In this document: one piece after another, positions 1 to 36,490 of the stretch
How the letters are laid out: the number at the start of each line of letters is the position of its first letter
How positions within the stretch are numbered: position 1 is the first letter of the stretch
NCBI GenBank assembly: GCA_964577675.1
Contig: CAZNZQ010000001.1
Coordinates: 5,875-69,874, forward strand
Length of the DNA: 64,000 bases
From: an uncultured Candidatus Saccharibacteria bacterium
Lineage (GTDB): Bacteria > Patescibacteriota > Minisyncoccia > Phycocordibacterales > UBA5272
Reading direction: 5' to 3'
The notes under the pieces: model-generated
Told to the model about the DNA's origin: nothing
The model's input: the letters and a program-made list of their open reading frames with translations, nothing else
The model's database searches: none
Made by a program: the position numbers and the translations under genes

Positions 1-773
1 TTCCAAAAGTATTTTCTAATACCGAACTCGCCTACCGTAACGACTTAGCTGCGTGGGCTGAAAAAGCTGGCTATAAAGGCATCATCGCAGAAGGATGGGA
101 CCCAATACTTGGGTGGAGGTCATCGAATTTCGTCTACCAGCCGCACGGCACCTCAAAGATAAAACTTCTTCTTAAGAACTATCGCCTTTCAGATGACATT
201 GCTTTCCGATTCAGTAATAAAGGATGGTCAGAATGGCCACTTACGGCGGATAAGTTCGCCTCATGGGTAAATGCACTTAATGGAAACGCAGAAACTGTCA
301 ACCTCTTTATGGACTATGAGACTTTCGGAGAACATCAATGGGAGGACACCGGCATCTTTGAATTTTTAAAGCATATGCCGAAAGAAATATATAAAAACAA
401 AGATAATGGATTCCTCACACTCTCTGAAACATGTAAGCAATATAAGCCAAAAGATGTTGTCGATATGCCACATATAGTGACTTGGGCAGACACCGAGAGA
501 GACCTCTCGGCCTGGACTGGTAATCACATGCAACAATCATCTCTGGCAGAACTCTACAGAATCGAAGGGCAAATTCTGGCCACTAAAAATAAAAAACTTA
601 TTGATGATTGGCGTAAATTGCAGACATCGGATCACGTTTATTATATGTGCACGAAATGGTTCGCAGACGGCGATGTGCATAAATACTTCTCCCCTTACGA
701 ATCCCCTTATGAGGCGTATATAGCATTCACTAACGCTCTCACCGATCTCAAGCTAAGGGCAAAAATTATATAA
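1..773 (+). CDS. GH57-family glycoside hydrolase (alpha-amylase/4-alpha-glucanotransferase-like), 5'-partial
   Basis: The frame is open from the window edge, so translating from nt 3 gives ...LLLKNYRLSDDIAFRFSNKGWSEWPL...FMDYETFGEHQWE... with no stop until 773. That matches the GH57 C-terminal region pattern. The ORF-track entry 309..773 is only an internal Met. Confidence 0.6.
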   Translation, partial: PKVFSNTELAYRNDLAAWAEKAGYKGIIAEGWDPILGWRSSNFVYQPHGTSKIKLLLKNYRLSDDIAFRFSNKGWSEWPLTADKFASWVNALNGNAETVNLFMDYETFGEHQWEDTGIFEFLKHMPKEIYKNKDNGFLTLSETCKQYKPKDVVDMPHIVTWADTERDLSAWTGNHMQQSSLAELYRIEGQILATKNKKLIDDWRKLQTSDHVYYMCTKWFADGDVHKYFSPYESPYEAYIAFTNALTDLKLRAKII

Positions 774-776
774 ACC

Positions 777-2738
777 ATGTCTCGACCTCTCACCCTATCA
801 AACGGAAACATTTTAGTCGGACTCGATAATCGCGGTTCAGTAACCGACTTCTTTTTCCCGTTTGTTGGTGTAGAGAATCATGTACGAGGTGAACCACATC
901 GCATTGGCGTGTGGCAGCACGGGAAGACATCGTGGCTATCAGATGATGAATGGAATATAGAAATAAACCTTCGTAAAGATACGTACATAGGAGAGGTAAA
1001 ATGCTTCAACAAGAGTACAAACTTAGAAATTCTTTTTACTGACATTGTCTACAACGAAAAAAATATCTTCCTTAGAAAGGCAAAAGTGACTAATCACGGG
1101 GAATCAACTGAGGACATAAAACTATTTTTCCATCAAGTCTTTTCAATCTACGGCACTCCTCAACAAGACACTGCGTACTATGATCCAAACAAAAATGTCT
1201 TGATTCACTACGAAGGGCGCAGAATGTTTCTTATTTATGCCGAAATGAGTGATATTCCTTTTGATGAATACAGTGTTGGTCTCTATGGCATAGAAGGAAG
1301 AGAAGGCACTTATAAAGATGCAGAGGATGGGAGTCTTTCTAAAAACTCTATCGAGCATGGCCACGTTGACTCAGTGTGTGGAGTATCTCTTACCCTTCAC
1401 AAAGGAGAAACTAGGGAGGTTTTCTATTGGATAACTGTTGGGGAGACAAAAGGAGAAGTGTATGAACTTCATGACTACATACACTACAAGAGACCAGACA
1501 GCTTAATAGAAAGTACTGATAAGTTTTGGCATGCTTGGCTCACTCGTCAGGACTACATAACATGCGACGTGAAAGATGAGAGAATGCTCGACCTTTTTAA
1601 GAAGAGTCTCTTTTACATACGCGGTAACATTGATAACCGCGGGGCCATACTCGCCTCCCCTGACTCATCGATGCTACAACACGGACGAGACACCTATAGC
1701 TACATGTGGCCACGTGACGGCGCCATGACCGTAATGGCTTTGCTGGAAGTTGGTGAATACAATATCTCTAAACACTTCTTCAAGTTTTGTAACGACGTTA
1801 TTGAGCCAGATGGATACCTAATGCATAAGTATCTAGCGGACAAATCTCTAGGTAGTTCATGGCACTCTTTTGTTAAAGACGGTGGACCTATTCTTCCTAT
1901 CCAAGAGGATGAGACAGCGCTTGTGCTCGTAGCCCTTTGGCAGTACTACGAAAAAACGAAGGATATCGATTTTATCGAAATGCATTACAATGCAGTAATT
2001 CACAGAATGGCGACATTCTTAAGTGAGTTTATCGACGAGGAGACTGGACTACCTATGCCGAGTTACGATCTGTGGGAGGAGAAGCATGGCGTCTCAACAT
2101 TTACTGCAAGCACTGTATACGCAGGACTTCAAGCTGGGGTTAACTTTGCCAAACTTTTCCAGAAGGAAAGCGACGAGGTACTCTTTACTAAAAAGGCAGA
2201 CGAGGTACGAGAAGCTATCTTAACACATCTCTATGATGAGAAGCGCGGCGCTTTCATAAAACTGCTTAACAAAAAGAATGGCGGGATAATAAAGAATACT
2301 ATTATAGACATGTCGAGTGTATATGGAATTTTTGCTTATGGAGTACTTGATGTTCACGATGAGAGAGTTGTCTCTTCTATAAAGGCAATTGAGGAAAATC
2401 TACGCCTACACACTGGGATTGACGGCGTTCCTCGTTATGAAGGTGATCGCTACTACATGCAAGTAGACGGCACACCAAACCCTTGGTACATCACAACACT
2501 ATGGCTAGCTCAATACTATGCGAAAGCTGCAACCAAGTCAGAAGACCTTGAACAAGTGCGTTATTGGATCAACTGGGTCATAGTACACTCCCCGTTATCA
2601 AAAGTATTATCTGAACAGCTTCACCCTTTCACCGGAGAACAGCTCTCTGCGACACCTCTTACGTGGAGCCATGGAGAGTACGTCCGTACGATTATTGCTT
2701 ATTATGAAGCACTTAAACGTATGGGCCTCTGTGAGTAA
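777..2738 (+). CDS. GH15 glucoamylase / glucodextranase-like (archaeal-type)
   Basis: 653 aa. It has an N-terminal beta-sandwich region plus an (alpha/alpha)6 catalytic region with LASPDSS, YSYMWPRDGAMT and WLAQYY motifs typical of GH15. It starts 4 nt after the GH57 stop, suggesting an operon. Confidence 0.75.
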   Translation: MSRPLTLSNGNILVGLDNRGSVTDFFFPFVGVENHVRGEPHRIGVWQHGKTSWLSDDEWNIEINLRKDTYIGEVKCFNKSTNLEILFTDIVYNEKNIFLRKAKVTNHGESTEDIKLFFHQVFSIYGTPQQDTAYYDPNKNVLIHYEGRRMFLIYAEMSDIPFDEYSVGLYGIEGREGTYKDAEDGSLSKNSIEHGHVDSVCGVSLTLHKGETREVFYWITVGETKGEVYELHDYIHYKRPDSLIESTDKFWHAWLTRQDYITCDVKDERMLDLFKKSLFYIRGNIDNRGAILASPDSSMLQHGRDTYSYMWPRDGAMTVMALLEVGEYNISKHFFKFCNDVIEPDGYLMHKYLADKSLGSSWHSFVKDGGPILPIQEDETALVLVALWQYYEKTKDIDFIEMHYNAVIHRMATFLSEFIDEETGLPMPSYDLWEEKHGVSTFTASTVYAGLQAGVNFAKLFQKESDEVLFTKKADEVREAILTHLYDEKRGAFIKLLNKKNGGIIKNTIIDMSSVYGIFAYGVLDVHDERVVSSIKAIEENLRLHTGIDGVPRYEGDRYYMQVDGTPNPWYITTLWLAQYYAKAATKSEDLEQVRYWINWVIVHSPLSKVLSEQLHPFTGEQLSATPLTWSHGEYVRTIIAYYEALKRMGLCE

Positions 2739-17537: not shown

Positions 17538-20057
17538 TTATTCTTCGGTTGTAGTTGCGGTAACCGGCAAGTTGAGGCTGCTGATAGTATCTTTATCTAG
17601 AATACTATCTAGTTCAAACTTTCGCCTAAGAGCTTCTGATAGGCTGCCGTCATCGTCAGAGAATACCTCTCCTGTTTGTTCACTATAAAATGCAAAGTCC
17701 TGCGCTCCAACTATAACTTCCCATCGAACACCGTCAAAGACAACACGGCCTCTTTCTCCAATTGATGTGTCATGTGCCGGAACCTCTCTCACTTGAATAG
17801 ATTTGTCGGTCAAATTAAAAGCATACACTCTTGACCTATCTTCAGAGAGCCAAAATAAGTGCGTATCCTTAATTCCAATCTGCATATTTTTATCTATTGT
17901 AATAGATGTTGAGGATCCAGCTTCTATCTTATACTCCCCTCCATTCTGGAGATCATACAACCACAACTCTTCCTTGCCATCTTTCTCCACCTGAACAATG
18001 ACAGCATTAAGGAGTGCGCCTCTAATTCTTTTAATCAAGTCTTTTGCAAAATCAGGCAAGCGATCCTCTTTCGTTTCTTCTGTCTTATCTTCCTTCTCTT
18101 CTTTTTTTATTTCTTGGACGATTTCGCGAGGAGAAAGTAAGGACCATGATTCTTTCTTCTCCAGCTTAAACCACTTATTCTTCGGTGTAACTGGAATGAT
18201 CACTGTGCTGCTTGTTGCAGTAGAAGTAGCTGTGATATCTGTACTCGCGGCAACTGAGCTTGTAGCTACTTCTGTCGTTGAAGTTGCGGTTACTAACGAG
18301 GATACCTCTTCTGTGGAGGTAGCCAAACTATTAGTTGTTGTCGCTACAGTTGTACTTGCGATATCTAAGGTACTGGTTGCTTGCGACACCTCTTCCTCAA
18401 GATACATATACCATATCTCTTCTTCATTGGTTTCGTTATTGATAATAGTTACTAGTCGCACACCATCAATCATCTCATCGTTAAGTATCGTATCTCTCGT
18501 AAAGTCTGGATGAGTATACTCTAGAGTAGAATCGTAAAGCACTTCTACCTTAACTGCATCGAGATATGTCACAGGCGTCTCACGTTCTAGGCTTTTAACA
18601 GTTACTTTTACTTGTAGCTGAGTCATATCTGCCCAGGTAGACGAGGCAGAAAGCGGGATTTCGAATGTTCTATATTTCATAGAGATCTCGTTGAGTTCAC
18701 CAAGAGAAGTCCAAGTAACTCCATCGAATGTGTACAGTATTTCTAAGAAGTTATTCTGTGACTCTTCTGGCGCTTGAGACAATAGCTCAGATGATGTTGA
18801 AACCATTTCTGTGGTTGATGCTAGACTTGAACTAGCTATAGAGAAGAGGTCGTCTGTGGAGGAAGCCGTTGTTGTGGCTGACAAAGAAACAATACTAGAG
18901 GTAGAGTTCTCCGGTGAAGCTTGTGACGAAGTGGATACAACCAAGGAGAGACCTTCGTCTGCCGTTTGAGTTACAGGCGTAGCTGTTTGTTCCTCTGTTC
19001 CTGGCTCGTCTATCTCTTGCGTCTCACTAGAGATTGAAGTAGTAAAAGATTCTTCGGGTGTAATGGCTACGAGCGGAGCCTCTTCCTCCATAGCCTGAAC
19101 AGGAGTGGCTACCTCCTCACTGCTCTCCTGCGCGAAAACAGTGGTAATAAAAAGTGAACCGATTCCCTGAAGAAGGTCCCGCATAAAAGATGTAGGGGCT
19201 TCAGGTGGTACTGAACTATCTCCTGCGGGCGTGACCTCTGCAGGGATTGACACTTCTTGGGATGCTGGCATGGTTTCTATCACAGGCGGTGGCACTACTA
19301 CCGTGTCTGTAACACTCTCAGACGGTGAGTTGTTAAAAATATTCCCCAGCGTTTCAGTTACCGCTCCTACAATAATCTCCGCGAATGATTGATTATCGTT
19401 TACTGATTGTGTGGTCGAAGCCTCAAGTGCCTCATTGGCAGTTTGAACAGGCGGAGATGAGGAGGCGGATGTTGAAGTTGACACAGTCTCTGTAGAGGAA
19501 GCTGAGAGTAATTCTTCAGAAGTTGAGGATGTTATCAGGGTTGTACTTGCGACAGCATTTATTACCTCAGTTGTTGTAGCTAGTTCACCAATAGTAATTT
19601 CTTCTTTATTAGTTATCGCAAGAGAAACAATTATCTTCTTAGGGACAGTTGCGTCATTAAATGTACCGTCGAAATTACCGCAATAGATATCAGCTGCTGT
19701 ATTCTTGTCTAGAATGGCTGAGTTCTTGTCGTTAAATTGTGAAGGGTCTGCATTAGATGTTGTCTCTCCTTCTTTCTCTGCATTACGAGGGTTGCTCCAA
19801 CCACCTAAACACGTCTCTGGATAAAAAGTTACAATATCAGCCTTACCACGTGGTGAGATAAAGCTGCCAACCACAAGAACAAGGACAAGCGAAGACAGTG
19901 CCATCATCATGTGCTTCTTCTGAAGAGCTCTATCGACTTGCTCTGAATACGAGAAGACCAAGTCATTCAGCGACTTGCTAACATTGTCGATATGAGACCC
20001 GACTTCGGGAAAATTCTTAGAAATGATTCTTGGTTTTCTTAGTTGGAATTTGCCCAT
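17538..20057 (-). CDS. single-pass membrane protein with very long S/T/A/E-rich low-complexity ectodomain
   Basis: 839 aa with an N-terminal TM (MMMALSSLVLVLVVGSF) and several hundred residues of S/T-rich low complexity. It has no recognisable catalytic motifs. Confidence 0.5.
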   Translation of the reverse strand: MGKFQLRKPRIISKNFPEVGSHIDNVSKSLNDLVFSYSEQVDRALQKKHMMMALSSLVLVLVVGSFISPRGKADIVTFYPETCLGGWSNPRNAEKEGETTSNADPSQFNDKNSAILDKNTAADIYCGNFDGTFNDATVPKKIIVSLAITNKEEITIGELATTTEVINAVASTTLITSSTSEELLSASSTETVSTSTSASSSPPVQTANEALEASTTQSVNDNQSFAEIIVGAVTETLGNIFNNSPSESVTDTVVVPPPVIETMPASQEVSIPAEVTPAGDSSVPPEAPTSFMRDLLQGIGSLFITTVFAQESSEEVATPVQAMEEEAPLVAITPEESFTTSISSETQEIDEPGTEEQTATPVTQTADEGLSLVVSTSSQASPENSTSSIVSLSATTTASSTDDLFSIASSSLASTTEMVSTSSELLSQAPEESQNNFLEILYTFDGVTWTSLGELNEISMKYRTFEIPLSASSTWADMTQLQVKVTVKSLERETPVTYLDAVKVEVLYDSTLEYTHPDFTRDTILNDEMIDGVRLVTIINNETNEEEIWYMYLEEEVSQATSTLDIASTTVATTTNSLATSTEEVSSLVTATSTTEVATSSVAASTDITATSTATSSTVIIPVTPKNKWFKLEKKESWSLLSPREIVQEIKKEEKEDKTEETKEDRLPDFAKDLIKRIRGALLNAVIVQVEKDGKEELWLYDLQNGGEYKIEAGSSTSITIDKNMQIGIKDTHLFWLSEDRSRVYAFNLTDKSIQVREVPAHDTSIGERGRVVFDGVRWEVIVGAQDFAFYSEQTGEVFSDDDGSLSEALRRKFELDSILDKDTISSLNLPVTATTTEE

Positions 20058-20130
20058 AGTACTTCTTTAGTATAGCAACGAAAAGTACTTAAAAATGAAG
20101 GGCAATCCACACAAAAGACTTTTACTACTT

Positions 20131-20232
20131 CTAAACTTCAAGAATCTCGCCAGACTGGTGTGCCCATAACTTAGCGTATAGCCCTTCCTGTTTGATGAGG
20201 TCTTCATGTGTACCATCTTGCACAATCTTTCC
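20131..20232 (-). pseudogene. 3'-terminal remnant of an ABC exporter ATP-binding protein gene
   Basis: The last ~33 codons of ORF 20131..20331 read GKIVQDGTHEDLIKQEGLYAKLWAHQ, the conserved C-terminus of MsbA-type ABC ATPases. The upstream part of the ORF has no ABC similarity and there are no Walker motifs anywhere nearby. Confidence 0.5.
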
Positions 20233-20262
20233 CTTGGTTTCCTTTCTCGAAAGATTTGACTT

Positions 20263-20292
20263 ATCGGCGCGCAATGCGCCGATTTTTATTTT
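20263..20292 (+). terminator. rho-independent terminator-like hairpin at the left edge of the island
   Basis: ATCGGCGC-gcaat-GCGCCGAT followed by TTTTTATTTT. Confidence 0.5.
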
Positions 20293-20528
20293 CAAAAACG
20301 GGGTCAGGCATCGTTTTAGAACCTGACTCAACTTGGCTGCGATGTAAGGTCTAGTACGTACTGTGTACGTGTGTGTAAGGGGATTTGGGCTAGTTCGAAT
20401 CTCAAACCCTAAGGGGTTTAGGTCGTTATTTACAGTTTATGAAATACCGTATTTGCTGTGATTTTACTGTGATTTCCGTTAATGAATCTGATATTAAAAA
20501 AGCCACAAGTTTTGTATACTTGTGGCAT

Positions 20529-20936
20529 ATGGCAAACCCAGGATCTCTTAAACCTTTCAAGAAAGGTCATGACCCAAGACGTAATGTTAAAGGGAGAATT
20601 TCTAAACCTCTATCTGAGTCTGGAGCTTTGAAAAAGTATCTTCTAAAGCACCTACATAAGAAAGTTACTGTTAATGGTGTACAAATGAGGATGATGGATC
20701 TCGTAGCGGAAAGACTCGTTGATGATGCTGTCAGAGGTAGTATTTCAGCATTAAAAATATTACTTGATAGAACAGAGGGTAAAGTAATGACACAAGCCCA
20801 GATGGCAAAAGTACGAGATAAAGAAGAACGAAAGTTGTCAGCAGCAGAAGACAAAGAGATGCTTCGAGTTATGAGACTTTTTGCAACCGAAGAAGAATTA
20901 AAGAAACTGGACGCTCAGGACTCGACCAAATCCTAA
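20529..20936 (+). CDS. phage-associated protein with DUF5681-like N-terminus
   Basis: MANPGSLKPFKKGHDPRRNVKGRISKP resembles the FKKGQSGNPxGRPKG motif of DUF5681 phage proteins. The start was chosen at the internal Met of ORF 20439..20936. Confidence 0.35.
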   Translation: MANPGSLKPFKKGHDPRRNVKGRISKPLSESGALKKYLLKHLHKKVTVNGVQMRMMDLVAERLVDDAVRGSISALKILLDRTEGKVMTQAQMAKVRDKEERKLSAAEDKEMLRVMRLFATEEELKKLDAQDSTKS

Positions 20937-21005
20937 GGTGTCTGTACTGTAGCTTACATAAAGGCATTTGTGTAGCCGAAGTTATCCACTCAAGTTACTC
21001 TAGGT

Positions 21006-21419
21006 CTATCTCGTTCCAAAGTGGGTATGTTGAACATAGTTGAACTCACCCTTATCTCCACCAACAATTCTTCCATCAATATTTTCCATATAGTACCCTA
21101 AAGTTTTATTTGTAAATAAATCTACAATACTTTTTTGAGTTATTCCCTGACCAACTGATATAGAGCGATACAAACAATCATTCGTATTTTTATCAAAAAT
21201 ATAGTCAGACGATGAGACAATGTCATTAGATGTATTTTGCTTGTTATATGTCTGATCTTCTTTTTCTCTTTTAGATCCTAATTCCAAGCACTGTTTCTGT
21301 AATGATATTTTGAGAGTCCGTTCATTTTGTTCAGGAATATATTTGAGAAGATAATATACAACTGAGACAGCGATAACCAAACATGACAAAGCAACTATAT
21401 GTTGAGTATTTTTATTCAT
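21006..21419 (-). CDS. hypothetical membrane-anchored protein (island)
   Basis: 137 aa with an N-terminal TM helix (IVALSCLVIAVSVVYYLL) and no recognisable domain. Confidence 0.35.
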   Translation of the reverse strand: MNKNTQHIVALSCLVIAVSVVYYLLKYIPEQNERTLKISLQKQCLELGSKREKEDQTYNKQNTSNDIVSSSDYIFDKNTNDCLYRSISVGQGITQKSIVDLFTNKTLGYYMENIDGRIVGGDKGEFNYVQHTHFGTR

Positions 21420-21422
21420 AAG

Positions 21423-21564
21423 TGTGTGATAGGCCTTATAAAGTGTGGTAGCAAAAATCCCACCACGTGGTGAGGTCTTGCGACCTCCATACCCGTTTCC
21501 AGGTACGGCCTATCACAGCAAAATCCACATGATGGGGTTTTTACTGTGATAGGACATTGTTCGC
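21423..21564. promoter_or_regulatory. palindrome-rich divergent control region (operator-like TGTGATAGG repeats)
   Basis: GTGTGATAGGCC at 21423, the inverse GGCCTATCACAG at 21509 and CTGTGATAGG at 21553; the last two form a 10-bp-stem inverted repeat around a 25-nt spacer. A perfect 12-bp palindrome CACCACGTGGTG sits at 21458, with GAGGTCttgcGACCTC next to it. Confidence 0.45.
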
Positions 21565-21710
21565 CATGCCGCTGATTACTCAAATGGTTTAGGCTACTTG
21601 TATTGATTTGTAAGAACATTATACCTCGTTTTTGAGGTCTTTGGTACTATAGCTTACTAATAAAATTTTGTGTAGAGAAATTATTTTATAATTAGTTTGT
21701 ATTTTTTACA

Positions 21711-21719
21711 TGCTATAAT
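21711..21719 (+). promoter_or_regulatory. extended -10 promoter (TGcTATAAT) giving a leaderless transcript
   Basis: TGCTATAAT ends 6 nt before the ATG at 21726, so the predicted TSS coincides with the start codon and there is no SD sequence. Confidence 0.4.
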
Positions 21720-21725
21720 CAAATT

Positions 21726-21905
21726 ATGTCAAAAACTATTCGCCAAAAAAGAGGAGACACTCTTGTCGGAACAATAGAGAAACAATACAATGTAGATCTT
21801 GGACATCGTTCTGATAAGAAATTAGCAACTGTTTTAAAAGAAACAGGTGCTCCTTCTTTGTCGAAACTACTTAAGATGGCAGACTCTTCGAAAAAGAAGA
21901 AATAA
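21726..21905 (+). CDS. small basic protein (59 aa), first gene of recombinase operon; candidate regulator/RDF
   Basis: MSKTIRQKRGDTLVGTIEKQYNVDLGHRSDKKLATVLKETGAPSLSKLLKMADSSKKKK. It is below the 60-aa cutoff of the ORF track. It ends 6 nt before the next ORF. Confidence 0.35.
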   Translation: MSKTIRQKRGDTLVGTIEKQYNVDLGHRSDKKLATVLKETGAPSLSKLLKMADSSKKKK

Positions 21906-21911
21906 GATGGT

Positions 21912-22436
21912 ATGAGCGAAGATAGTTTTGATTTTATTGATTATCAAAATTTGAGGAACAATATAATTGACTCTATTAATTATATTGCAACACTTTGGAT
22001 ACAAGCTGAAAGTATTGAAAAAGCACATCACCAAGAACTATACAGGACAATTATTTTTTATAACGCATCTATAGTAGAAGCATTATTACTGTTCTTTTGT
22101 ACTAAAAAGTCAATTTTAATTACTCAAGATAAATATACGGAGCCGTATAAATTACCTGACGGTTTTCAAAAAACAGGCGGAGAAACTTACATAGCTATAA
22201 AAAAGAAAGTTAAAAAAACATATGCCGAAATTTCATTTGCAGATCTACTTGGTGCTACTGAAGATTTCTTGGGGAAGGCTTTATTTAAAAAGATTACAGA
22301 TTTGAAAGATCTCCGTAATACTGTACATCTAGCAAAGAGTAGGACACTAATTAAGCAGGAAGTCGTTAAAGGTTCGAGTGATACTGTTTTTAAATTAGTA
22401 AAAAAAATTCAAAAAGAAGTTAGGGTTATCAACTAG
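21912..22436 (+). CDS. hypothetical protein (island)
   Basis: 174 aa, AT-rich codon usage, in an operon between the small ORF and the recombinase. No motif could be assigned; the RNTVH stretch is not a canonical HEPN Rx4-6H. Confidence 0.4.
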   Translation: MSEDSFDFIDYQNLRNNIIDSINYIATLWIQAESIEKAHHQELYRTIIFYNASIVEALLLFFCTKKSILITQDKYTEPYKLPDGFQKTGGETYIAIKKKVKKTYAEISFADLLGATEDFLGKALFKKITDLKDLRNTVHLAKSRTLIKQEVVKGSSDTVFKLVKKIQKEVRVIN

Positions 22437-22461
22437 CTATATTGCGTGTTTCGGGTATGTT

Positions 22462-23751
22462 GTGTGTTGTATGGAAAACATAACAGAACCAATAAGATAT
22501 TGCCTCTACGCCCGTAAGTCAAGCGAAGCTGAGGAAAGACAAGCACTTTCAATAGATTCTCAGATAAAAGAGATGCTTTCACTGGCAAGTAGAGACGGGC
22601 TTGAAATTGTAGATATTTACCGAGAATCCCACTCAGCAAAGGATTGTGGACAAAGACCGGTCTATAACCAGCTTTTAACCGATATACGAGCCGGTAAGTT
22701 CAATGGAGTAGTTGTTTGGCATCCAGACAGACTTGCACGTAATGCAGGCGACCTTGGGGTAATTGTAGACCTTTTAGACCAAAAGAAGCTGGTGGAGATA
22801 CGAACACATAGTCAGAGATTTACCAATAATCCAAATGAGAAGTTCTTGCTGATGATTCTAGGGTCACAAGCAAAGCTAGAGAATGATAATAAGAGTATCA
22901 ATGTGAAGCGTGGACTTAAGATGAGGTGTGAGATGGGGTTTTGGCCAAGCGGAGCACCCACTGGATACATCAACTCACCGAATCGAGATGAGAAGGGTGT
23001 GGTCTATATAGATCCTGCGCGCGCGCATGTAATGAAAGATATGTTTGTGAAAGTTGGTCATGGAGGGTGGAGTGGAAGGAAGCTCTATAAATGGCTAAAA
23101 GATATAAAGTTCACCACCAGGTATGGCAAACCTCTTAGCTTAAGTAATATTTATAAAATACTTTCCAATCACTTCTACTATGGAATGTTTGAATACCCAA
23201 AAGGTAGCGGTAAGTGGTATCAAGGTAACTACGAGCCAATCATTTCCAAAGATTTATTTACTGATGTTCAGAACCAGCTACATCAAGAAGTAAGAGTGAA
23301 AGGAAAGAATAAAGAGTTTACATTCACAAAGATGTTTACTTGTGGAGCATGTGGCTCGGGTGTCACTGCGCAAGAGAAGTATAAAAACCTAAAAGACGGA
23401 ACGATTAATAAGTACATCTATTATGGATGTACACGAGCAAAAGATATAAACTGCAAGGAGGGTTATATAGAGGAAAGAGTACTATTAAGTGAGTTGCTGA
23501 AAGTGTTAGATCAAATAGACTTAGATAAATCAGGACTAAAGAAAAAGCTTGAAAAGGAAATTGAGAGGCATAAAGTTTTTCACTCTAAAATCATGGGTAA
23601 AGAAGAAGAAAACTATGAAGTAAAAGACGTAGACATACGCAATTATGCTAAGTATGTCCTAGAGAAAGGATCGGTGTTTGAGAAGAGAGATTTGTTGGGA
23701 ACTTTTAAGAGTGGAGTGAGTCTAAAAGATAAATATATTACGTTAACCTAA
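22462..23751 (+). CDS. large serine recombinase (resolvase/integrase family)
   Basis: The N-terminal resolvase catalytic region contains YARKSS (the Ser nucleophile) and VVWHPDRLAR. A recombinase domain and a C-terminal Cys-rich zinc ribbon (CGACGSG...YYGCTRAKDINC) plus a coiled coil follow. Confidence 0.8.
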   Translation: MCCMENITEPIRYCLYARKSSEAEERQALSIDSQIKEMLSLASRDGLEIVDIYRESHSAKDCGQRPVYNQLLTDIRAGKFNGVVVWHPDRLARNAGDLGVIVDLLDQKKLVEIRTHSQRFTNNPNEKFLLMILGSQAKLENDNKSINVKRGLKMRCEMGFWPSGAPTGYINSPNRDEKGVVYIDPARAHVMKDMFVKVGHGGWSGRKLYKWLKDIKFTTRYGKPLSLSNIYKILSNHFYYGMFEYPKGSGKWYQGNYEPIISKDLFTDVQNQLHQEVRVKGKNKEFTFTKMFTCGACGSGVTAQEKYKNLKDGTINKYIYYGCTRAKDINCKEGYIEERVLLSELLKVLDQIDLDKSGLKKKLEKEIERHKVFHSKIMGKEEENYEVKDVDIRNYAKYVLEKGSVFEKRDLLGTFKSGVSLKDKYITLT

Positions 23752-23757
23752 TTTATT

Positions 23758-24492
23758 TTAAACTATTTCTACCCACGAAGAGTCATAGCCAATGGTTTCT
23801 AGCAATGTGTCAGTATTAAGGGATGGCGGTTTCTTTATGAAAAACTTTAATCGATTTTCAGGGATATTTTCTTTTATTGTAAATTGAGAACCATGTCTTT
23901 GCCAGGTAAACTTATGTTCTTGAGTTTCCTTATCGAAACCTTCTAGGTTTCCATTTTTATTCTTTTTCCAAAAAAATCTATCTTCTGGATACCTAACTGT
24001 TTCGTACTCAAATACACTAAATGGGATTTTCTCATCTTCAAAATCCGTTGGCTTAAGAAGCACAACGGTTCTTATCTCTTTAAATTTATCCCTAAGTCCT
24101 TCTACTCTTCCATTCCAAATTTGAAGGACCTGGGCTCCAATACCATCATCTGTATCAGCAATTGTATCAAAAGAATACTCAGGATTATTTCTACCAGATA
24201 TAAGTCGTACTGAGGTCACAGTATGAGGGCTGCCTGCTTTTACAGTTTTTGCCCCCCAAGCGAAACTCCCTTTAATTACATCATCTAATCCAACATTAGA
24301 AGGTTTCCATTCCGCGTCTATTGCTTTTGCAAAAATTCTTTCCCACTCTGAACCTTCCAGTGCAGGATGTCTACTGGTGGCAAGCATGAAAACTAATTCC
24401 ATACCAAGAATACTCGTAAATGATTTTGGGAAATCATTTAATTGGTATGGTGGCACAGCCTTTTGCACTGTTTTTAGTTTTGGTTCTGACAT
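23758..24492 (-). CDS. putative type II restriction endonuclease (partner of the m5C methyltransferase)
   Basis: 244 aa, sitting 7 nt downstream of and co-directional with the MTase. It has no similarity I can name. The assignment is by genomic context only. Confidence 0.35.
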   Translation of the reverse strand: MSEPKLKTVQKAVPPYQLNDFPKSFTSILGMELVFMLATSRHPALEGSEWERIFAKAIDAEWKPSNVGLDDVIKGSFAWGAKTVKAGSPHTVTSVRLISGRNNPEYSFDTIADTDDGIGAQVLQIWNGRVEGLRDKFKEIRTVVLLKPTDFEDEKIPFSVFEYETVRYPEDRFFWKKNKNGNLEGFDKETQEHKFTWQRHGSQFTIKENIPENRLKFFIKKPPSLNTDTLLETIGYDSSWVEIV

Positions 24493-24498
24493 AATATC

Positions 24499-25491
24499 TT
24501 ATTTTACTCCAATTTTAGATTTTACGCTTCTTTTTTGCGCGGGAATGGGCTTTTTTGACAATGCTTCTATTATTGCACTTGCCACGGCTTCCATTTGAGG
24601 AACTACCACTGCGTTTCCGGCTTGTTTTCGTGCTTGTGAATCAGGCACTATTATTCTGTAATCATCCGGGAACCCTTGTAGTCTAAACATCTCTCTCGGA
24701 GTAAGTCTTCTTTCTCCATTCACAACAAGATAATTATAAGATCCGCTTGCTCTCAGTGCGCAAGAGTAGGACTTCATACTAATGTTACCTGACATATTCT
24801 CATGCCACACAGAAGGATAGGCAGGGGCTGTCTTATTCTGTTCCTTCAGTTTTCTTTGTAACTTTAATTTAAAATAATTACTTAAGAAATGCTTAGAATC
24901 TATTTCTTTATTATCTTCTAAAATGTCTTCAAGCTTCTTAGCTCTTCTCTTTCCTTTGGTGGGAAATTCGAAAGGATGATTATCTCTGAAACCTACTATC
25001 ATTATTCGCTCTCTTTTCTGAGGCACACCAAAATCTAAACCGTTCAAAACCTTGTAGTGAACAAAATAACCTAACTTTTCAAGACTTGAAATTATTGTAT
25101 TAAAGGTTCTACCATGATCATGGGTTGTAAGGTTCTTAACATTCTCAAGGAACACTACTTTAGGTTTTTTATCTTTTATGATTCTTTCCACTTCAAAAAA
25201 CAAAGTTCCCCGTGTATCTGCAAAACCTTTCCTGTTTCCTGCAATACTAAAAGCTTGGCAAGGGAACCCTCCAGTTAAAATGTCATGGTCGGGGATTTCT
25301 TTTGTGGTTATTTTGGTTATATCTCCGTGAGGTTTATCACCAAAGTAGTTTTCATACATTATTTGAGCTGATTCGTCCCATTCAGAACCAAATACGCAAG
25401 TTGCCCCAGCTTTTTCAAAGCCGATTCTAATTCCGCCAATTCCAGCAAATAAATCTATAAAAGTTAATTTCTTCTCTGTATTTTTTTTCAT
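24499..25491 (-). CDS. DNA (cytosine-5)-methyltransferase, M.HhaI-like
   Basis: Motif I FIDLFAGIGG, motif IV GGFPCQAFSIAG, motif VI VVFLENVKN and motif VIII QKRERI. The N-terminal ~190 aa align closely by eye with my recollection of M.HhaI. The start was taken at MKKNTEKK. Confidence 0.85.
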   Translation of the reverse strand: MKKNTEKKLTFIDLFAGIGGIRIGFEKAGATCVFGSEWDESAQIMYENYFGDKPHGDITKITTKEIPDHDILTGGFPCQAFSIAGNRKGFADTRGTLFFEVERIIKDKKPKVVFLENVKNLTTHDHGRTFNTIISSLEKLGYFVHYKVLNGLDFGVPQKRERIMIVGFRDNHPFEFPTKGKRRAKKLEDILEDNKEIDSKHFLSNYFKLKLQRKLKEQNKTAPAYPSVWHENMSGNISMKSYSCALRASGSYNYLVVNGERRLTPREMFRLQGFPDDYRIIVPDSQARKQAGNAVVVPQMEAVASAIIEALSKKPIPAQKRSVKSKIGVK

Positions 25492-25585
25492 TACTCTAAT
25501 AAGTATACACCAAAACGGGTGCCTAAATTTTAGGCTCTCCACAGGTGGAGATTTTGAACAAATTAGAATAGTATTGTTTCAAAAG

Positions 25586-26878
25586 CTATTGAGTCTCCGT
25601 CTTATCTTCTAGCGATTTTAACTCAGAAAACTTAGCTGCCATTGTAGGGTTACCTTTAACAAGCTTCTTAACAGTTAACTCTTCTGCTTTGTCATTAGCT
25701 AGACGCAAGTTGTTCTCTGAAGAGATAAGATCTTTTTTTGTTTTTTCGAGCTGTTTGATGGATTCATCAATGTGATCTATGGCAGTTTTAAACTTTTCAG
25801 ATGCGAGGCGATAATTGCGATTAAAACCATCTCGGAATTCAGTCAAATCATTTTCAAAATTAGTAACATCAATGTTTTGATTTTTAACAATTGCAAGCTC
25901 AGCTTTATACTCAAGTGATTTGAGGGAAGCGTTACGAAGCAAAGTTATTATTGGAATAAAGAATTGTGGGCGAATAACATACATCTTTGAATGACGATAA
26001 GACACGTCAACTATACCTCCATTGTAAAGATCACTCTCCGGCTCAAGTAGTGAAACTAAAACTGCATACTCACATTTCTTTTCATCTCGATCTTTATCAA
26101 GTTCTTTAAGAAAATCCTCATTCTTTTTCTTTGTGGCAGTTTCGTCTCCTTCGTTTTTCATTTCAAACATAATAGAAATGATCTCATTGCCATTCTGATC
26201 AGTTTCTCGATATATATAATCTCCTTTACTGCCAGTTTTAGAATCATTATCTTTTTCAAAATATGCATTTTGAAAAGCTGTAGCACGAAGCTTGTTGAAT
26301 TCGTTTTCACAGTGTTGCTCTAGTGTCTCACCAATCATTTTTGTTGAGAGTTTAAGCTTCATATCTTTACGAAGAGCAATCTCCTCATCTTTCATTTTTA
26401 TGATGTCGTCTTTGGTTTTTAGTTCGCTAGAAAACTTCTCTTTTAGAGATGTCTCGAGTAACTGTTTTTCAACATCTTTACTCTTAAGTTCACCAGCAAG
26501 CTCGTCACGTTCTTTCTCGATTTTATTTACAGCTTCATTAATAGCCAGTTTCTTCTCGGTTTCAGTGGATGCAATTTTTGCTTTTAGTTCAGATATCTCA
26601 AGTTCGCTCTTTGATTGATGTAGAGCTACTTCACGCTCCTTTTCTGCTTTAAGCTTTGCTATTTCTGTATCTTTTTGAGAAAGATCATCTTTTATCTTAT
26701 TTTTAATCTGTTCTTCGGCAAGCTTCACAGCATTCTCTTTATCAGCCTTAAAAAGCCTTTCTCTCTGGAGCAGCTCTTCTTCAAACTGATGATCTCTTAC
26801 TTGCTTGAGAATGTCAGCAAAACCAGCTTCATCAATTTTAAAAGCTTTATGACAGTTAGGGCAGATAATCTCGTTCAT
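25586..26878 (-). CDS. DUF2130-like protein: N-terminal C4 zinc ribbon, long coiled coil, C-terminal RmuC/PD-(D/E)xK-like region
   Basis: CPNCHKAF...; roughly 200 aa of heptad-rich E/K sequence; then GDYIY...[13 protein letters not shown] (a candidate D...ExK nuclease motif). Confidence 0.45.
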
Positions 26879-26951
26879 TGTTATATTCTAACATTTATCA
26901 AGATGTAATCTAAATCACTAAGTAAAATCAAAATATATAGATAGTAATTGT

Positions 26952-27266
26952 TTACGTCCTTTGATATTTTAGTCGTCCATATAAAGCTTCACTGTAATAG
27001 TTAGCAAAATAAAACCATTGACCGACAAAAGCTCCGCAATCAGAACATGTATTGGCTAAATAGGTTTCATTTGCTGTTTTGCTAGTTACTTTTTTAATGA
27101 GAACTCCGTTTTTCTCAGCAAGCTCTATTTCTTTTTGGTTAAATTTCTCAGGCCCATAATCCATATTTCCGTTGTCGTCCCCAATAAGAGCAATGAGCAT
27201 TTCTTTACCACACTGCCAACAAGGTGCTGATATGATCATCATTTTTTCTTGTTGTTTATTATTCAT
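26952..27266 (-). CDS. small zinc-finger protein (two CxxC pairs)
   Basis: 104 aa containing CWQCGKEM...CSDCGAF. Confidence 0.4.
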   Translation of the reverse strand: MNNKQQEKMMIISAPCWQCGKEMLIALIGDDNGNMDYGPEKFNQKEIELAEKNGVLIKKVTSKTANETYLANTCSDCGAFVGQWFYFANYYSEALYGRLKYQRT

Positions 27267-27299
27267 GCAATAATATTACACTAAACAAACTACATGCAC

Positions 27300-27643
27300 C
27301 ATGTCATTTAGATCTACTAAGTATTGACCCGTTTAGGTCCTTCGATACTTATTTACAAAGCTGGGGCGTTGAGACTGTCACTGTGTATAGGTCTAGTACG
27401 AGTCCTAACAGGGTGATGGGTTTTGGTCTAGAAAATTCTAAAACCACCTATTGAAAAATATAGGTCTTTAGGTCCTTCGATACTTATTGCTTCTGCTGGG
27501 GCGTTGAGAATGTCACCGGCTTTAGGTCTGGTACTAAGTGACCCCATTGAGACTAGCTTTTTTATTTTTGTGTCAATAGTTGATCTTAAAAAACTATTGA
27601 AAAATATACGAAGTGTTTAGGTCCTTCGATACTTATTGATTCT
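27300..27643. repeat. three tandem degenerate ~140-bp repeats containing the tRNA-Gln 3' flank sequence
   Basis: TTTAGGTCCTTCGATACTTATT..CTGCTGGGG recurs at 27332, 27467 and 27615. Copies 2 and 3 also share CTATTGAAAAATATA upstream. The third copy runs directly into the real tRNA-Gln 3' end. Confidence 0.7.
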
Positions 27644-27714
27644 GCTGGGGTATAAGGACTCGAACCTCAATTAACGGTGCCAGAAACCGTTGTCCTACCA
27701 TTAGACGATACCCC
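27644..27714 (-). tRNA. tRNA-Gln (anticodon CUG)
   Basis: Reverse complement TGGGGTATCGTCTAATGGTAGGACAACGGTTTCTGGCACCGTTAATTGAGGTTCGAGTCCTTATACCCCAG folds as a cloverleaf. It has a U1-A72 acceptor, anticodon stem ACGGT/ACCGT, loop TTCTGGC and a TTCGAGT T-loop, and closely resembles E. coli tRNA-Gln. CCA is not encoded. Confidence 0.75.
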
Positions 27715-27756
27715 AATTAATATTTTGTGGCTCACTACCTCGTTCCTGCCCTTAAT

Positions 27757-27952
27757 CTCTTATTGATACTTGAGATTATTTTGCTCGAAATCTTGCTAGA
27801 TTTACGAGCCCTCGAAGCCGAGCTTCTCGGCCCAATTGTTATTCCTACTTCTCAAACTTTTATTTGCCTCGACTCGGTTATTGATTCTCGAGATTACTTT
27901 GTTCAAAACTTTGCTAAGCTTTGAACCCTTCGAGGCCGAGCCTCGGCGGCCC
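27757..27952 (+). repeat. two tandem ~100-bp imperfect repeats each ending in a GC-rich palindrome
   Basis: Unit 1 (27757-27845) and unit 2 (27860-27952) are about 75% identical. Each carries GCCGAGCTTCTCGGC or GCCGAGCCTCGGC followed by a T-rich tract. Confidence 0.55.
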
Positions 27953-28238
27953 ATTTTATATTTCTCACTATCTTCCGCTCTTCGGGCCGTTGCGACTATG
28001 CTTCCGGCACTGCGATTTCAAAAGATTGATTACTATCTAAGAAATCGGGAGCCCATTTCCTGCTGACAACATTTTGTCGCTGAACAGCTGTGCAAATTTC
28101 TAAATTTTTGAACTTTGCCACAGAAACGTATCCGAAATTCTACCACAATGTTGGACTTTTTTCTAGGCTGACCTGATGAGGCACTCGATAAGTGAGTCTA
28201 GCTTAAAAAGCAATTATGTAGTATTATGCAGTACTCAA

Positions 28239-31125: not shown

Positions 31126-31288
31126 TTTGAAAATCGACAATCACTTTCAGAGTTAACGAGAGAGGAAAGCTCGGGAATTATGTTTGATAAGAGATGTGGC
31201 TATCATACACATCAGTGTAAGCGGAAAGTAGAAAACGGAGAAGACTTGACTATTTAATTATATATTTTAAGATAGATTTATCCAAACG

Positions 31289-31603
31289 ATGGAGAAAAGA
31301 TTGAAAACTACGCTCTTTAAAATTTTGAGAGACTCGGCATCTCAAACGTTTCCTGGCACAACATCAACCTACGGGGAAAATGCTGGACAGGCCGTACTAA
31401 TCTGTCTCTTGGGTCTGGCGATAAACATCGCCTCGCAGGACCTTATCGGCACTGTGAGCATCAACAGCCTTCCATGGCTCATGATGTGGTCGATTCATGC
31501 CACATCTACGATGGTTGCCATCGTTTCGATGCTATATTTTTTATTTTTTTTGGTTGTCGTGACACTATCTAGCATAGAAAGGATCATTCAACCAAAAAAA
31601 TAG
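31289..31603 (+). CDS. small hypothetical membrane protein
   Basis: 104 aa with two predicted TM helices, followed by a strong terminator. Confidence 0.35.
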   Translation: MEKRLKTTLFKILRDSASQTFPGTTSTYGENAGQAVLICLLGLAINIASQDLIGTVSINSLPWLMMWSIHATSTMVAIVSMLYFLFFLVVVTLSSIERIIQPKK

Positions 31604-31614
31604 CCTGGTCAATC

Positions 31615-31652
31615 ACCCACCGAAACCCACCTCGGTGGGTTCTTTTATTTTA
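31615..31652 (+). terminator. rho-independent terminator
   Basis: ACCCACCGA-aacccacc-TCGGTGGGT (9-bp stem) followed by TCTTTTATTTT. Confidence 0.8.
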
Positions 31653-31727
31653 TACAAACAGAGTGACTGCTTTAAATATCGAAACACCTGAATTCCTTCA
31701 GAAAGAGGGTGGGTAATTTTAAATATT

Positions 31728-32654
31728 CTATACTTTCAAATATTTTCGTACCGCGAGAAGCGAAGACACTGTTGTCAAAACTGCACCAAAAGCAAGGAGC
31801 GAGAGAACAAGCGCCCCAAGATGAGCTGTATAGAACGAGTGGATATTCATACCTTCGAAAAAGAACACTGTCTTCTTGGTTACCCAGATAGTTGCTGGGA
31901 AGAAAATAATAACGGTTATTAGTGTCGCTGCTACAGAGTATAGAATAGACTCTACTACAAAAGGCCCCCTAATAAACATATTAGATGCCCCCACAAGCTT
32001 CATCACCGCTATCTCATCACGATATACGAAAATGGCTAAACGAATTGTATTGTATACAATCATACAGCTCATCAAGATGAATATAACAGAAAGCCAGAAG
32101 CCTACTGTATTGGTCCATCCGATAATGTTGTTGAGCTTGTCGATACTGTCTTTTATTTGATAATAGTTTATCTTATCGATCGCAGTCTTGTTGTCTCCCA
32201 AGAGTCCAGATGTATCCTCGAGTTGCTTAGCAATAGCCTCATAACGAGAAGTATCGTTAGCCACCACTGAGAGCGACGCCCCGAACGGGTTGATACCCAG
32301 TTCTTCAAGGGCTTGAAGTGTCAGCTGATCCCCTTCGTGTTTCTTTCTAAAGTCTTCGAGTGCTTGTTCCTTTGTTGTTTAGGTAACCATCTTCACATCT
32401 GTTAGACCCATGAGCTTAGCCTTCACCTCGCTTGTCTGTTGTTCTGTTGCGTCAGTCTTGAAATAAATACGAATATCTACCTTCTCTCTTACTTCATTGA
32501 GCGTATAGTCGAAGACCGCTCTAAAAAGATAAAATGATGTAATAATCGAAAGCGTAATCGTCAGAATAAAAATCGAAGACAGTGAAACCGTGCGGTTACG
32601 ATAGAATCCTCTTAGTCCAGCAAGTGCAACCCTTTTCCAAAGTACAGTTCGCAT
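31728..32654 (-). pseudogene. ftsX: cell-division permease FtsX interrupted by an in-frame TAA
   Basis: ORFs 32379..32654 (N-terminal TM1 region) and 31728..32267 (C-terminal TM2-4) are in the same frame. The 37 codons between them (TTKEQALEDFRKKHEGDQLTLQALEELGINPFGASLS) read as the FtsX extracellular loop. The only interruption is TAA at 32379-32381. Confidence 0.6.
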
Positions 32655-32666
32655 AATAATTATTGT

Positions 32667-33347
32667 TTAAATACTAAATCTTCCAGACTTCTGATCTCTC
32701 ACGATTCTTCCGTTCTCCATCGTTAGTACGCGACGTCCGAGATTATCCACTATACCTTTGTTGTGAGTGGTTAGGATGACGGTAGTACCGAGGTCATTAA
32801 TCTTCTTGAGAATCTGAACAATATCGTAAGTATTAAGCGGATCAAGGTTCCCTGTTGGTTCATCCGCAATAATAATCTCCGGACGGTTGATAATTGCACG
32901 AGCAATAGCAACACGCTGCTGCTCACCACCAGAAAGCTGATGTGGGAAGTGGTGCATCTTACTCTTTAGGTCTACAAGATCTAATACATGTGGAACATCC
33001 TCTTCTATTTCATCGTCGTGCTTGCCAGCTGCTTCCATGGCAAAAGCCACGTTCTCATACGCGGTCTTATTAGGAATGAGCCTAAAGTCTTGGAAAACCA
33101 CTCCGATTTTTCTACGGAAGTGCATCATCTCCTTTCCTTTCAGTGTATGAATATCGTCTGAGTTAAACGACACACTTCCTTCTGTCGGAGACTCTTCTGC
33201 CATCATGAGCTTAATGAGAGTAGTCTTGCCAGCGCCTGAGTGACCTACTATTGAGACCAGTTCGCCTTTGTTTATAGTAAGAGATATGTCGTCGAGTACG
33301 CGGTTACCGTTTTCGTACTCTTTAGAAACTTTGTCGAAGTAAAGCAT
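32667..33347 (-). CDS. ftsE: cell-division ABC ATPase FtsE
   Basis: Walker [10 protein letters not shown], signature [14 protein letters not shown] and Walker B IIIADEPT. It lies immediately upstream of ftsX. Confidence 0.85.
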
Positions 33348-33452: not shown

Positions 33453-34340
33453 CTAACTTCCTAACAGTACCACCTTTTCTGCTTCAATAAACCCTTCTAT
33501 CTCACCTTTTTCTAAAACAGCTTCTACATTACTGGTCTCATAGTCAGTTCTGTGATCCTTTACCATCTTGTACGGGTGAAGTACGTATGAACGTATCTGA
33601 TTCCCCCACTCTATCTCAGTGGTCTTACTAATCTGCCTCCCCTCTACTTCGGCCTGGCGCTTCTCTTCTTCTAATTTAAAAAGTTTGGATTGCAAAATTT
33701 CTAATGCCTTCTGCTTGTTCTGCTCCTGCTGACGTTCAGTCGCCACATGCACTGCGATATTAGTCGGTATATGAATAACGCGCACAGCAGTCTCTCTCTT
33801 GTTAACGTTTTGACCACCGGGACCGCTCGACTTAGACATCTCTATACGTATCTCGTCCGGCGACAATGTCTTCCTCTCTACTTCTGGGATGATTGGGAGC
33901 ACTTCGACTAGAGCAAAAGAAGTGTGCCGCTTTGCCTGTGCATTAAACGGTGAAATTCTAACAAGGCGATGCACACCGGACTCATGTTTGAGATTACCGT
34001 AGACCATCTTACCCTCTATTTCGAGCGTGATATTGCGATACCCGCCATGGTCGTTCTTATTATCATGAAGCGTGTTATAACGATAACTATTTCTATCGAA
34101 GTACTTCTGATACATCATTAGGAGTATACGAGCGAAATCTTCACTATCATCCCCTCCTGCACCAGCCAAGATGGAGAAAATTGCTCCACCTTTATCGAGT
34201 GCTCCCACACCCTCCTTTTTATCCTTTAATTCTTTAATTTTTTTGATGACAGACTGCGCTTTCTCTTTATCAGTCCAAAAATCAACCTCATTCATCGAGG
34301 CTTCAAGCTCTGCTATTTCGAGATCCAGGTTTTCTCCCAT
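33453..34340 (-). CDS. prfB: peptide chain release factor 2
   Basis: GGQ motif (SGPGGQNVNK) and the RF2-specific SPF motif (RISPFNAQAKRHTSF). The start was taken at MGENLDLEI. No CUU-UGA-C frameshift site is present. Confidence 0.75.
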   Translation of the reverse strand: MGENLDLEIAELEASMNEVDFWTDKEKAQSVIKKIKELKDKKEGVGALDKGGAIFSILAGAGGDDSEDFARILLMMYQKYFDRNSYRYNTLHDNKNDHGGYRNITLEIEGKMVYGNLKHESGVHRLVRISPFNAQAKRHTSFALVEVLPIIPEVERKTLSPDEIRIEMSKSSGPGGQNVNKRETAVRVIHIPTNIAVHVATERQQEQNKQKALEILQSKLFKLEEEKRQAEVEGRQISKTTEIEWGNQIRSYVLHPYKMVKDHRTDYETSNVEAVLEKGEIEGFIEAEKVVLLGS

Positions 34341-36054: not shown

Positions 36055-36234
36055 AGATAGTTTACGCTTTTGGCTGGAAGACGTAAATAGAACGGAAATG
36101 CTAAGAATCGGTCACAAGAGCACTCGCTTCGCTCAAGAAGCTATTGCTTGTTCCTAGAACCGAACTTGCTAACTCGCCTATTCGACTCTCGACATAAAGT
36201 CACTCAAGTGACTTTTTCTTTGGATCACTGCGTG

Positions 36235-36490
36235 AGCCAAGAGCGGGAATCGAACCCGCGACCTCTTCCTTCGTTTACACCCCATCTTCATTCTTATACA
36301 TAGGGACTAGACTGTATCTTTATCCACTAAGGATACCCTTGTCAGTCGTTCGGGCGAATACTCGCCACGGTCTTAGCTTATTGTCAGCCGTTAACCGTTA
36401 TTCGGGATTCACAATACAGTTACCTGTATTGTGGGCAGGAATCTTTTACGACCCACCATGGAAGTGCTCTACCAACTGAGCTATCTTGGC
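36235..36490 (-). tRNA. tRNA-Thr (anticodon GGU) interrupted by a 183-nt intron between positions 36 and 37
   Basis: Exon 1 is GCCAAGATAGCTCAGTTGGTAGAGCACTTCCATGGT and exon 2 is AAGGAAGAGGTCGCGGGTTCGATTCCCGCTCTTGGCT. Joined, they give a perfect 73-nt cloverleaf with a 7-bp acceptor stem, D-arm GCTC/GAGC, anticodon stem CTTCC/GGAAG, loop AUGGUAA and T-arm GCGGG-TTCGATT-CCCGC. Confidence 0.7.
36272..36454 (-). ncRNA. putative group I self-splicing intron in the tRNA-Thr anticodon loop
   Basis: The 5' exon ends in U and the intron ends in G. The intron contains AAGAUACAGUCUAGUCC, resembling the group I J8/7-P7 (S) element, and GACUG upstream as a P7 partner. It has a P8-like hairpin UAUCC-uuagu-GGAUA and a 10-bp hairpin capped by a GUAA tetraloop. 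Confidence 0.5.

Follow-up and report, generated by a model that had tools for sequence, protein, structure and literature searches.

The ftsX gene examined here, from a genome of the Patescibacteria, is interrupted by a single in-frame TAA. The locus raises the question whether this stop codon is a genuine and recent lesion, an error in the assembled sequence, or a signal that the translation machinery bypasses. The whole stretch of DNA analyzed, 64 kb in length, is referred to as the window.

FtsEX, the complex of FtsX with its ATPase partner FtsE, is conditionally required in E. coli, and in B. subtilis it is not essential and its loss is tolerated. FtsEX activates a cell-wall hydrolase by mechanotransmission (PMC11627006, PMC7668044). 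It is essential in S. pneumoniae, where its loss is lethal (PMC3735124, PMC7468199), whereas in mycobacteria it is conditionally required, mainly at low ionic strength (PMC10913748). The original prediction described ftsX as an essential gene, which agrees with the pneumococcal data and is too strong as a general statement in view of the mycobacterial data. Because FtsEX is only conditionally required in some bacteria, a viable ftsX null is conceivable.

Anatomy and family assignment of the interrupted gene

Translation of the minus strand from position 32654 to 31728 yields 309 codons with a single internal stop at codon 92, in keeping with the original description of one in-frame TAA in an otherwise intact ftsX. 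The altered base, at window position 32379, occupies the third codon position and reads T on the plus strand and A on the coding strand. The features of the locus and of its surroundings are listed in Table 1. The N- and C-terminal ORFs had been described as lying in the same frame, and the ORF listing bears this out for the upstream 91-aa and the downstream 179-aa ORFs. The 37 codons that bridge them encode TTKEQALEDFRKKHEGDQLTLQALEELGINPFGASLS, exactly the sequence that had been called a sensible periplasmic loop of FtsX. A second ftsX was not found within the 64-kb window.

Table 1 Features of the ftsX locus and of other regions of the window.
Feature	Coordinates	Strand	Description	Basis or remark
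ftsX	31728..32654	minus	308 sense codons and terminal TAG, one interruption at codon 92	translation, Pfam, intact orthologues
Premature stop TAA, codon 92	32379..32381	minus	ancestral codon TAT (Tyr)	
Upstream ORF	32379..32654	minus	91 aa, ATG start	
91 codons translated as written	32382..32654	minus	N-terminal helix, TM1, first β-α-β of the extracellular domain	
37 post-stop codons	32268..32378	minus	no canonical start; 22 residues invariant in 33 orthologues	
Downstream ORF (mechanical)	31728..32267	minus	179 aa, GTG at codon 130; rest of ECD and TM2-TM4	
ftsE	32667..33347	minus	intact; TAA 12 nt before the ftsX ATG	TIGR02673, 282.7 bits (cutoff 264.85)
prfB, release factor 2	33453..34340	minus	295 aa; upstream of ftsE	Pfam PCRF and RF-1; best NCBIfam match prfB; start taken from the sequence
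ftsX-Pif1-family helicase spacer	31126..31727		602 nt	
Hydrophobic ORF in the spacer	31289..31603	plus	104 aa	no Pfam match
Terminator-like hairpin	31615..31650		directly after the 104-aa ORF	
Conserved part of the spacer	about 31205..31278		~60-70 nt	
Low-G+C island	about 20000..28200		36% G+C	
DUF5681	20439..20936		in the low-G+C island	
LOOT RNA	21472..21595		in the low-G+C island	83.5 bits
Large serine recombinase	22462..23751		in the low-G+C island	
Putative restriction enzyme	23758..24492		in the low-G+C island, after the methyltransferase	by eye from translation
Putative C5 cytosine methyltransferase	24499..25542		in the low-G+C island	by eye from translation
DUF2130	25586..26878		in the low-G+C island	
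tRNA-Gln(CTG)	27644..27715		adjoined by the low-G+C island	
tRNA-Thr(GGT)	36234..36490	minus	183-nt insertion in the anticodon loop; 74 nt mature	ARAGORN, introns allowed

The read-through translation matches two Pfam domains, FtsX_ECD (PF18075) at residues 59–150 with an E-value of 5e-16 (59.4 bits, gathering threshold 23.5) and the FtsX permease domain (PF02687) at residues 188–307 with an E-value of 2e-10 (41.1 bits, gathering threshold 25.5). The NCBIfam FtsX models used were the ‘exception’ models FtsX_Gpos and FtsX_actino and the equivalog FtsX_Gneg. The scores fall below their cutoffs, with 177 bits for the best model, FtsX_Gpos (cutoff 225), and 166.8 bits for FtsX_Gneg (cutoff 255). 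The alignment to the models is full length, and the shortfall is therefore ascribed to the divergence of Patescibacteria rather than to membership in another family. Alignment of the read-through protein with solved FtsX chains is likewise full length, at E-values of 1e-13 to 1e-10.

FtsX is the permease-like subunit of FtsEX, a type VII ABC mechanotransmitter with structures available from P. aeruginosa (PDB accession number 8i6o), E. coli (8hd0) and M. tuberculosis (8idb). The window gene resembles known FtsX in the combination of PF18075 and PF02687, in its four predicted transmembrane helices with a large extracellular domain (ECD) between TM1 and TM2, and in the location of ftsE directly upstream. 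It differs in its divergent sequence, below the NCBIfam equivalog cutoffs, and in the TAA at codon 92, in place of one uninterrupted FtsX reading frame. The ftsX gene lies directly 3′ of ftsE, an order common to its relatives. Its domains, its topology and its synteny together place the gene in the FtsX family.

The AlphaFold model of an orthologue 96% identical in sequence (P0001) contains helices at residues 25–57, 167–214, 223–263 and 271–306 and an α/β domain at residues 61–164. The mean pLDDT of this model is 60, and for that reason it was used for placing secondary structure only and not for a fold search. Residue 92 is located in the second β-strand of the ECD, residues 87–93, where the pLDDT is a modest ~ 73–78.

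On its 3′ side, ftsX is separated from a gene for a Pif1-family helicase by a spacer much longer than the 66–86 nt seen in the closest relatives (L001, L083 and L084). The spacer contains a small ORF on the plus strand, followed by the terminator-like hairpin, and eight relatives at a greater distance share one conserved segment of it. The spacer gave no match in Rfam.

Ancestral codon and age of the lesion

More than 3000 homologues emerged from a protein search, led by uninterrupted 308-aa proteins with 90–96% identity; with intact orthologues of this length, the read-through protein shares 96% identity from end to end. For comparison at the DNA level, 80 loci were collected from a scan of GTDB species representatives, a set that does not include the assembly of the window itself. 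All 80 belong to metagenome-assembled genomes (MAGs) labeled Patescibacteria, Paceibacterota, Parcubacteria, Nomurabacteria or, loosely, Saccharibacteria, and the source genome is of a Patescibacteria (Paceibacteria/Nomurabacteria-like) lineage.

Codon 92 encodes tyrosine in 77 of the 80 relatives (TAT in 50, TAC in 27) and phenylalanine or leucine in the other three (TTT in one, CTN in two). None of the 80 has a stop at this codon, and no in-frame stop occurs anywhere in ftsX among the 50 relatives with more than 66% identity. The alignment of orthologous proteins likewise has Tyr, sometimes Phe, at position 92. The original prediction had expected CAA, GAA or AAA as the sense codon; this expectation was wrong, as the orthologues carry TAT or TAC.

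The closest known DNA is a 2.4-kb Logan contig from a different strain (L081), 93% identical overall and 96% identical in its ftsX part, a partial copy that ends three codons past codon 92. For the ACC TAA ACA of the window, the contig has ACC TAT ACA. Its FtsE protein is identical to that of the window, all 19 nucleotide differences being synonymous, and of the five differences closest to the stop, four affect the third base of a codon. Among JGI metagenome contigs, a degenerate DNA pattern that spans the site matched one, again with TAT. With Tyr in 77 of 80 relatives, a stop in none of them and TAT in the closest strain, the sequences compared identify the lesion as a private third-position T>A transversion that converts TAT (Tyr92) to TAA.

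A collection of 153 billion gene positions contains no exact match to the 91-aa and 179-aa truncated products, nor to the products of the neighboring prfB, pif1 and pirin genes; the assembly of the window is likewise missing from this collection. FtsE is the sole nearby product with an exact match, on the Logan contig. A protein search with the C-terminal 216 residues retrieved nothing closer than 96%, so that a branch specific to the window could not be isolated downstream of the stop.

At 96% protein identity, the DNA of the relatives is only ~ 82% identical. For ftsX, dS against the relatives is ~ 0.9 to > 2, near saturation, with dN at 0.02–0.03 and dN/dS at 0.012–0.027 both upstream and downstream of the stop. 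Apart from the stop, the window protein has a single residue that none of the 32 aligned relatives shares, the conservative replacement D146E. By dN/dS and private residues, no further lesion and no relaxed selection were detected in ftsX, and none of the latter on ftsE. The locus thus resembles an ‘internal stop’ nonsense allele, with one substitution from TAT to a stop, private to one genome and with no associated signal, and the lesion is an ordinary nonsense substitution of an already-known kind. Unlike a typical nonsense pseudogene, it is free of secondary decay; with both ftsX and its partner ftsE intact in this respect, the stop is either extremely young or not real.

Two of the ftsX-like loci encountered in the comparison stand apart. 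In contig CAZVHT010000019.1, positions 687..1601 hold a second, distant copy (L080) that aligns by tblastn with 44% identity and has two in-frame stops. The same MAG carries an intact ftsX (L058), and the distant copy is possibly a paralogue in decay. The other locus is on a contig assigned to a Polynucleobacter sp. MAG (SSFP01000011.1, L027). Its FtsX is of the Patescibacteria type, with 75% identity to that of the window, and the contig is probably a binning contaminant.

Genetic code, termination and restart

Fifty-nine large ORFs in the window end in TAA (32), TAG (25) or TGA (2). The context of codon 92, TAA followed by A, is the commonest among the genuine terminators (13 of the 32 TAA stops), and ftsE itself ends in TAA at 226 aa, the same length as in the relatives. 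For a recoding test, all adjacent pairs of long open segments in the same frame were listed and those on the coding strand were read. No other gene interrupted by a stop was found in the 64 kb. The remaining pairs are separate genes, encoding a membrane protein and a peroxiredoxin, a methyltransferase and a restriction enzyme, two glycoside hydrolases, and a septation-protein-like product and AtpB; one further pair consists of an SMC gene followed by a meaningless ORF. The original view that the genome is not recoded, which relied on TAA being a genuine stop in many genes and on the presence of prfB, therefore stands on all these points, ftsX being the sole interrupted gene. Reassignment of TAA was rejected within the window on the strength of its use as terminator and the lack of other genes interrupted by an in-frame TAA. 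TGA stops are rare even though RF2 is present, and in-frame TGA codons were not seen in genes.

A suppressor tRNA with the anticodon UUA was not found in the window, where the only tRNA genes identified are tRNA-Gln(CTG) and an intron-containing tRNA-Thr(GGT). In the latter, the last base of the 5′ exon is T and that of the insert is G, a pattern shared with group I introns. The gene is missed by ARAGORN with default settings and at the Rfam gathering thresholds, and the Rfam group I intron model gave no hit at E ≤ 0.1. In E-value mode, Rfam reports an 18-nt ‘tmRNA’ 3′-end match at 36243..36260, which corresponds to the T-arm and acceptor of this tRNA. The tRNA-Gln(CTG) gene is adjoined by an island of low G+C content (~ 43% elsewhere in the window) that is probably an integrated mobile element; its genes are included in Table 1.

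The match of the prfB product to the RF2 profile starts no earlier than position 113 of 353, such that the protein lacks most of the canonical N-terminal domain, and the gene has no +1 programmed frameshift site. Relatives also call prfB at 295–297 aa, and the short form is therefore considered a trait of the lineage.

Bypass of the stop by a programmed event receives little encouragement from its context. Known programmed read-through includes the A1 protein of phage Q-beta, at UGA, and the UAG of tobacco mosaic virus, decoded by tRNA-Tyr. The window resembles such cases in having an in-frame stop followed by an open and meaningful frame, with Tyr expected at the site. It differs from both in that the stop is unconserved, is UAA, and lies in a standard terminator context and not one distinct from normal stops; a downstream stimulator was not identified from the sequence. 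Programmed read-through is disfavored, as the stop is present neither in the 80 relatives nor in the Logan contig. A frameshift bypass at ACC-TAA-A was rejected as well: the site lacks a slippery sequence, and the reading frame would not be recovered by such a shift.

Restart downstream of the stop was considered for its start codons. The 37 codons after the stop contain no in-frame ATG, GTG or TTG, and the first such codon is the GTG at codon 130, 38 codons downstream. No Shine-Dalgarno motif precedes this GTG, its context is G+C-rich, and the ORF that it opens displays no other sign of independent initiation. A start at this position would omit the invariant residues of the bridging segment. 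Shine-Dalgarno motifs are nearly absent from the genome (2 of 36 genes). In many genes a TATACT, TAGAAT or TATAAT box, often preceded by TG, occurs 7–12 nt upstream of the ATG, for example at the starts 33347, 34340, 38847, 41360, 46067 and 56996 on the minus strand and 62451 on the plus strand. The proximity of these boxes to the ATG suggests leaderless mRNAs or mRNAs with very short leaders.

Competing explanations and significance

The reading favored here, with a probability of about one half, is that the stop is a private and unprogrammed single-base substitution in a fully constrained ftsX, that is, a real and very recent null or strongly hypomorphic allele. The sequences themselves show the anatomy of the gene, its ancestral codon, the private nature of the change and the lack of decay and of recoding or restart signals. 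Three components of the reading are inferred: a genuine base, a null allele and a cell able to live with the loss. Translation would stop at UAA92, leaving a 91-residue fragment that comprises the N-terminal helix, TM1 and the first β-α-β unit of the ECD. The other 216 codons, which specify the remainder of the ECD, TM2–TM4 and the surfaces that contact FtsE, would go untranslated because no start codon is nearby. FtsE would then have no membrane partner, and FtsEX signaling to the cell-wall hydrolase would be lost.

Two of the four candidates put forward originally, sequence error and recent nonsense mutation, survive the analysis, while split FtsX and programmed read-through are disfavored. 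In the choice between the two survivors, a real base is slightly more likely than an error. A base-call, polishing or consensus error, in an organism that in fact has TAT and an intact ftsX, is nonetheless a serious possibility, if one to which less than even odds are given. It would account for a codon just one base away from the conserved one, in a gene that is otherwise perfect and constrained, as is its partner ftsE, and for truncated products that occur in no other assembly. A null allele as the consensus of an assembly is also unlikely a priori, given the strong constraint on ftsX (dN/dS ~ 0.02) and the intact gene in all close relatives. Against a real allele it also counts that errors strike genes regardless of constraint, and that the gene-position collection holds no independent assembly of the same strain to corroborate the base. 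On the other side, the coding density of the window is 91%, and in 30 other ORFs scanned, the Pfam matches, where present, span essentially the whole profile; with no other split gene, a noisy consensus is unlikely. The lack of any other stop or split domain in ~ 58 kb of coding sequence points to a low consensus error rate. Judged from the aligned sequences, the differences from the Logan contig near the stop look like natural strain polymorphism, at wobble positions, and not like random noise. If the assembly is a short-read de Bruijn one, each k-mer would have to be present in several reads, which would make an isolated substitution error unlikely. The stop is immediately preceded by GGTTACC (GGTNACC), where motif-linked miscalls could arise if the assembly is based on nanopore reads.

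Incidental suppression, in which near-cognate decoding of UAA by tRNA-Tyr yields enough of a low-abundance FtsX, is unlikely. Tyrosine is among the amino acids inserted at UAA by near-cognate tRNAs, as found by mass spectrometry in yeast and E. coli. Since the ancestral residue is Tyr and the downstream frame is intact, such decoding would regenerate the exact wild-type protein, and the N-terminally short RF2 of the lineage could conceivably affect termination. However, UAA is normally the tightest stop, with basal read-through typically at 1e-4 to 1e-3; the TAA-A context is the one most used for termination here, the stop is conserved in none of the relatives, and the window has no suppressor tRNA. 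Nothing at this locus points beyond background read-through. Assembly in the membrane of residues 1–91 with a restarted C-terminal polypeptide is very unlikely. Both halves are open and in the same frame, yet the restart would have to be made at GTG130 after 37 codons with no start, with no Shine-Dalgarno motif and with 22 invariant residues skipped. Furthermore, the break falls inside the ECD β-strand 87–93, no relative has a split gene, and the ~ 45-residue N-terminal tail of the C-terminal piece would presumably need to be exported with no signal. That TAA is reassigned to a sense codon, or that ftsX is an old and decaying pseudogene, is the least probable explanation, at a negligible level. 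Nothing beyond the stop itself speaks for either; TAA closes ORFs at the lengths of their orthologues and RF2, which reads UAA, is present, whereas old decay is contradicted by the lack of further lesions, the dN/dS of ~ 0.02 downstream of the stop and the single other private residue.

As it stands, the interruption of ftsX matters little, and its main value is as a flag for curators of this assembly, at base 32379, where ftsX is to be annotated either as ‘intact’ or as ‘internal stop’. Were the stop real and the population healthy, the locus would represent a natural knock-out and would show that a lineage of the Patescibacteria can either do without FtsEX or suppress UAA. Though modest, this would be a real gain in the physiology of an uncultured group, in a lineage not yet genetically manipulable. 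It is improbable that the stop is both real and fixed and that division proceeds nonetheless, through misreading by tRNA-Tyr, perhaps aided by the short RF2, or through dispensability of FtsEX in an episymbiont. If the former were true, termination in Patescibacteria would be unusually leaky; if the latter, an ultrasmall episymbiotic bacterium would be able to do without FtsEX, strongly conserved though the complex is.
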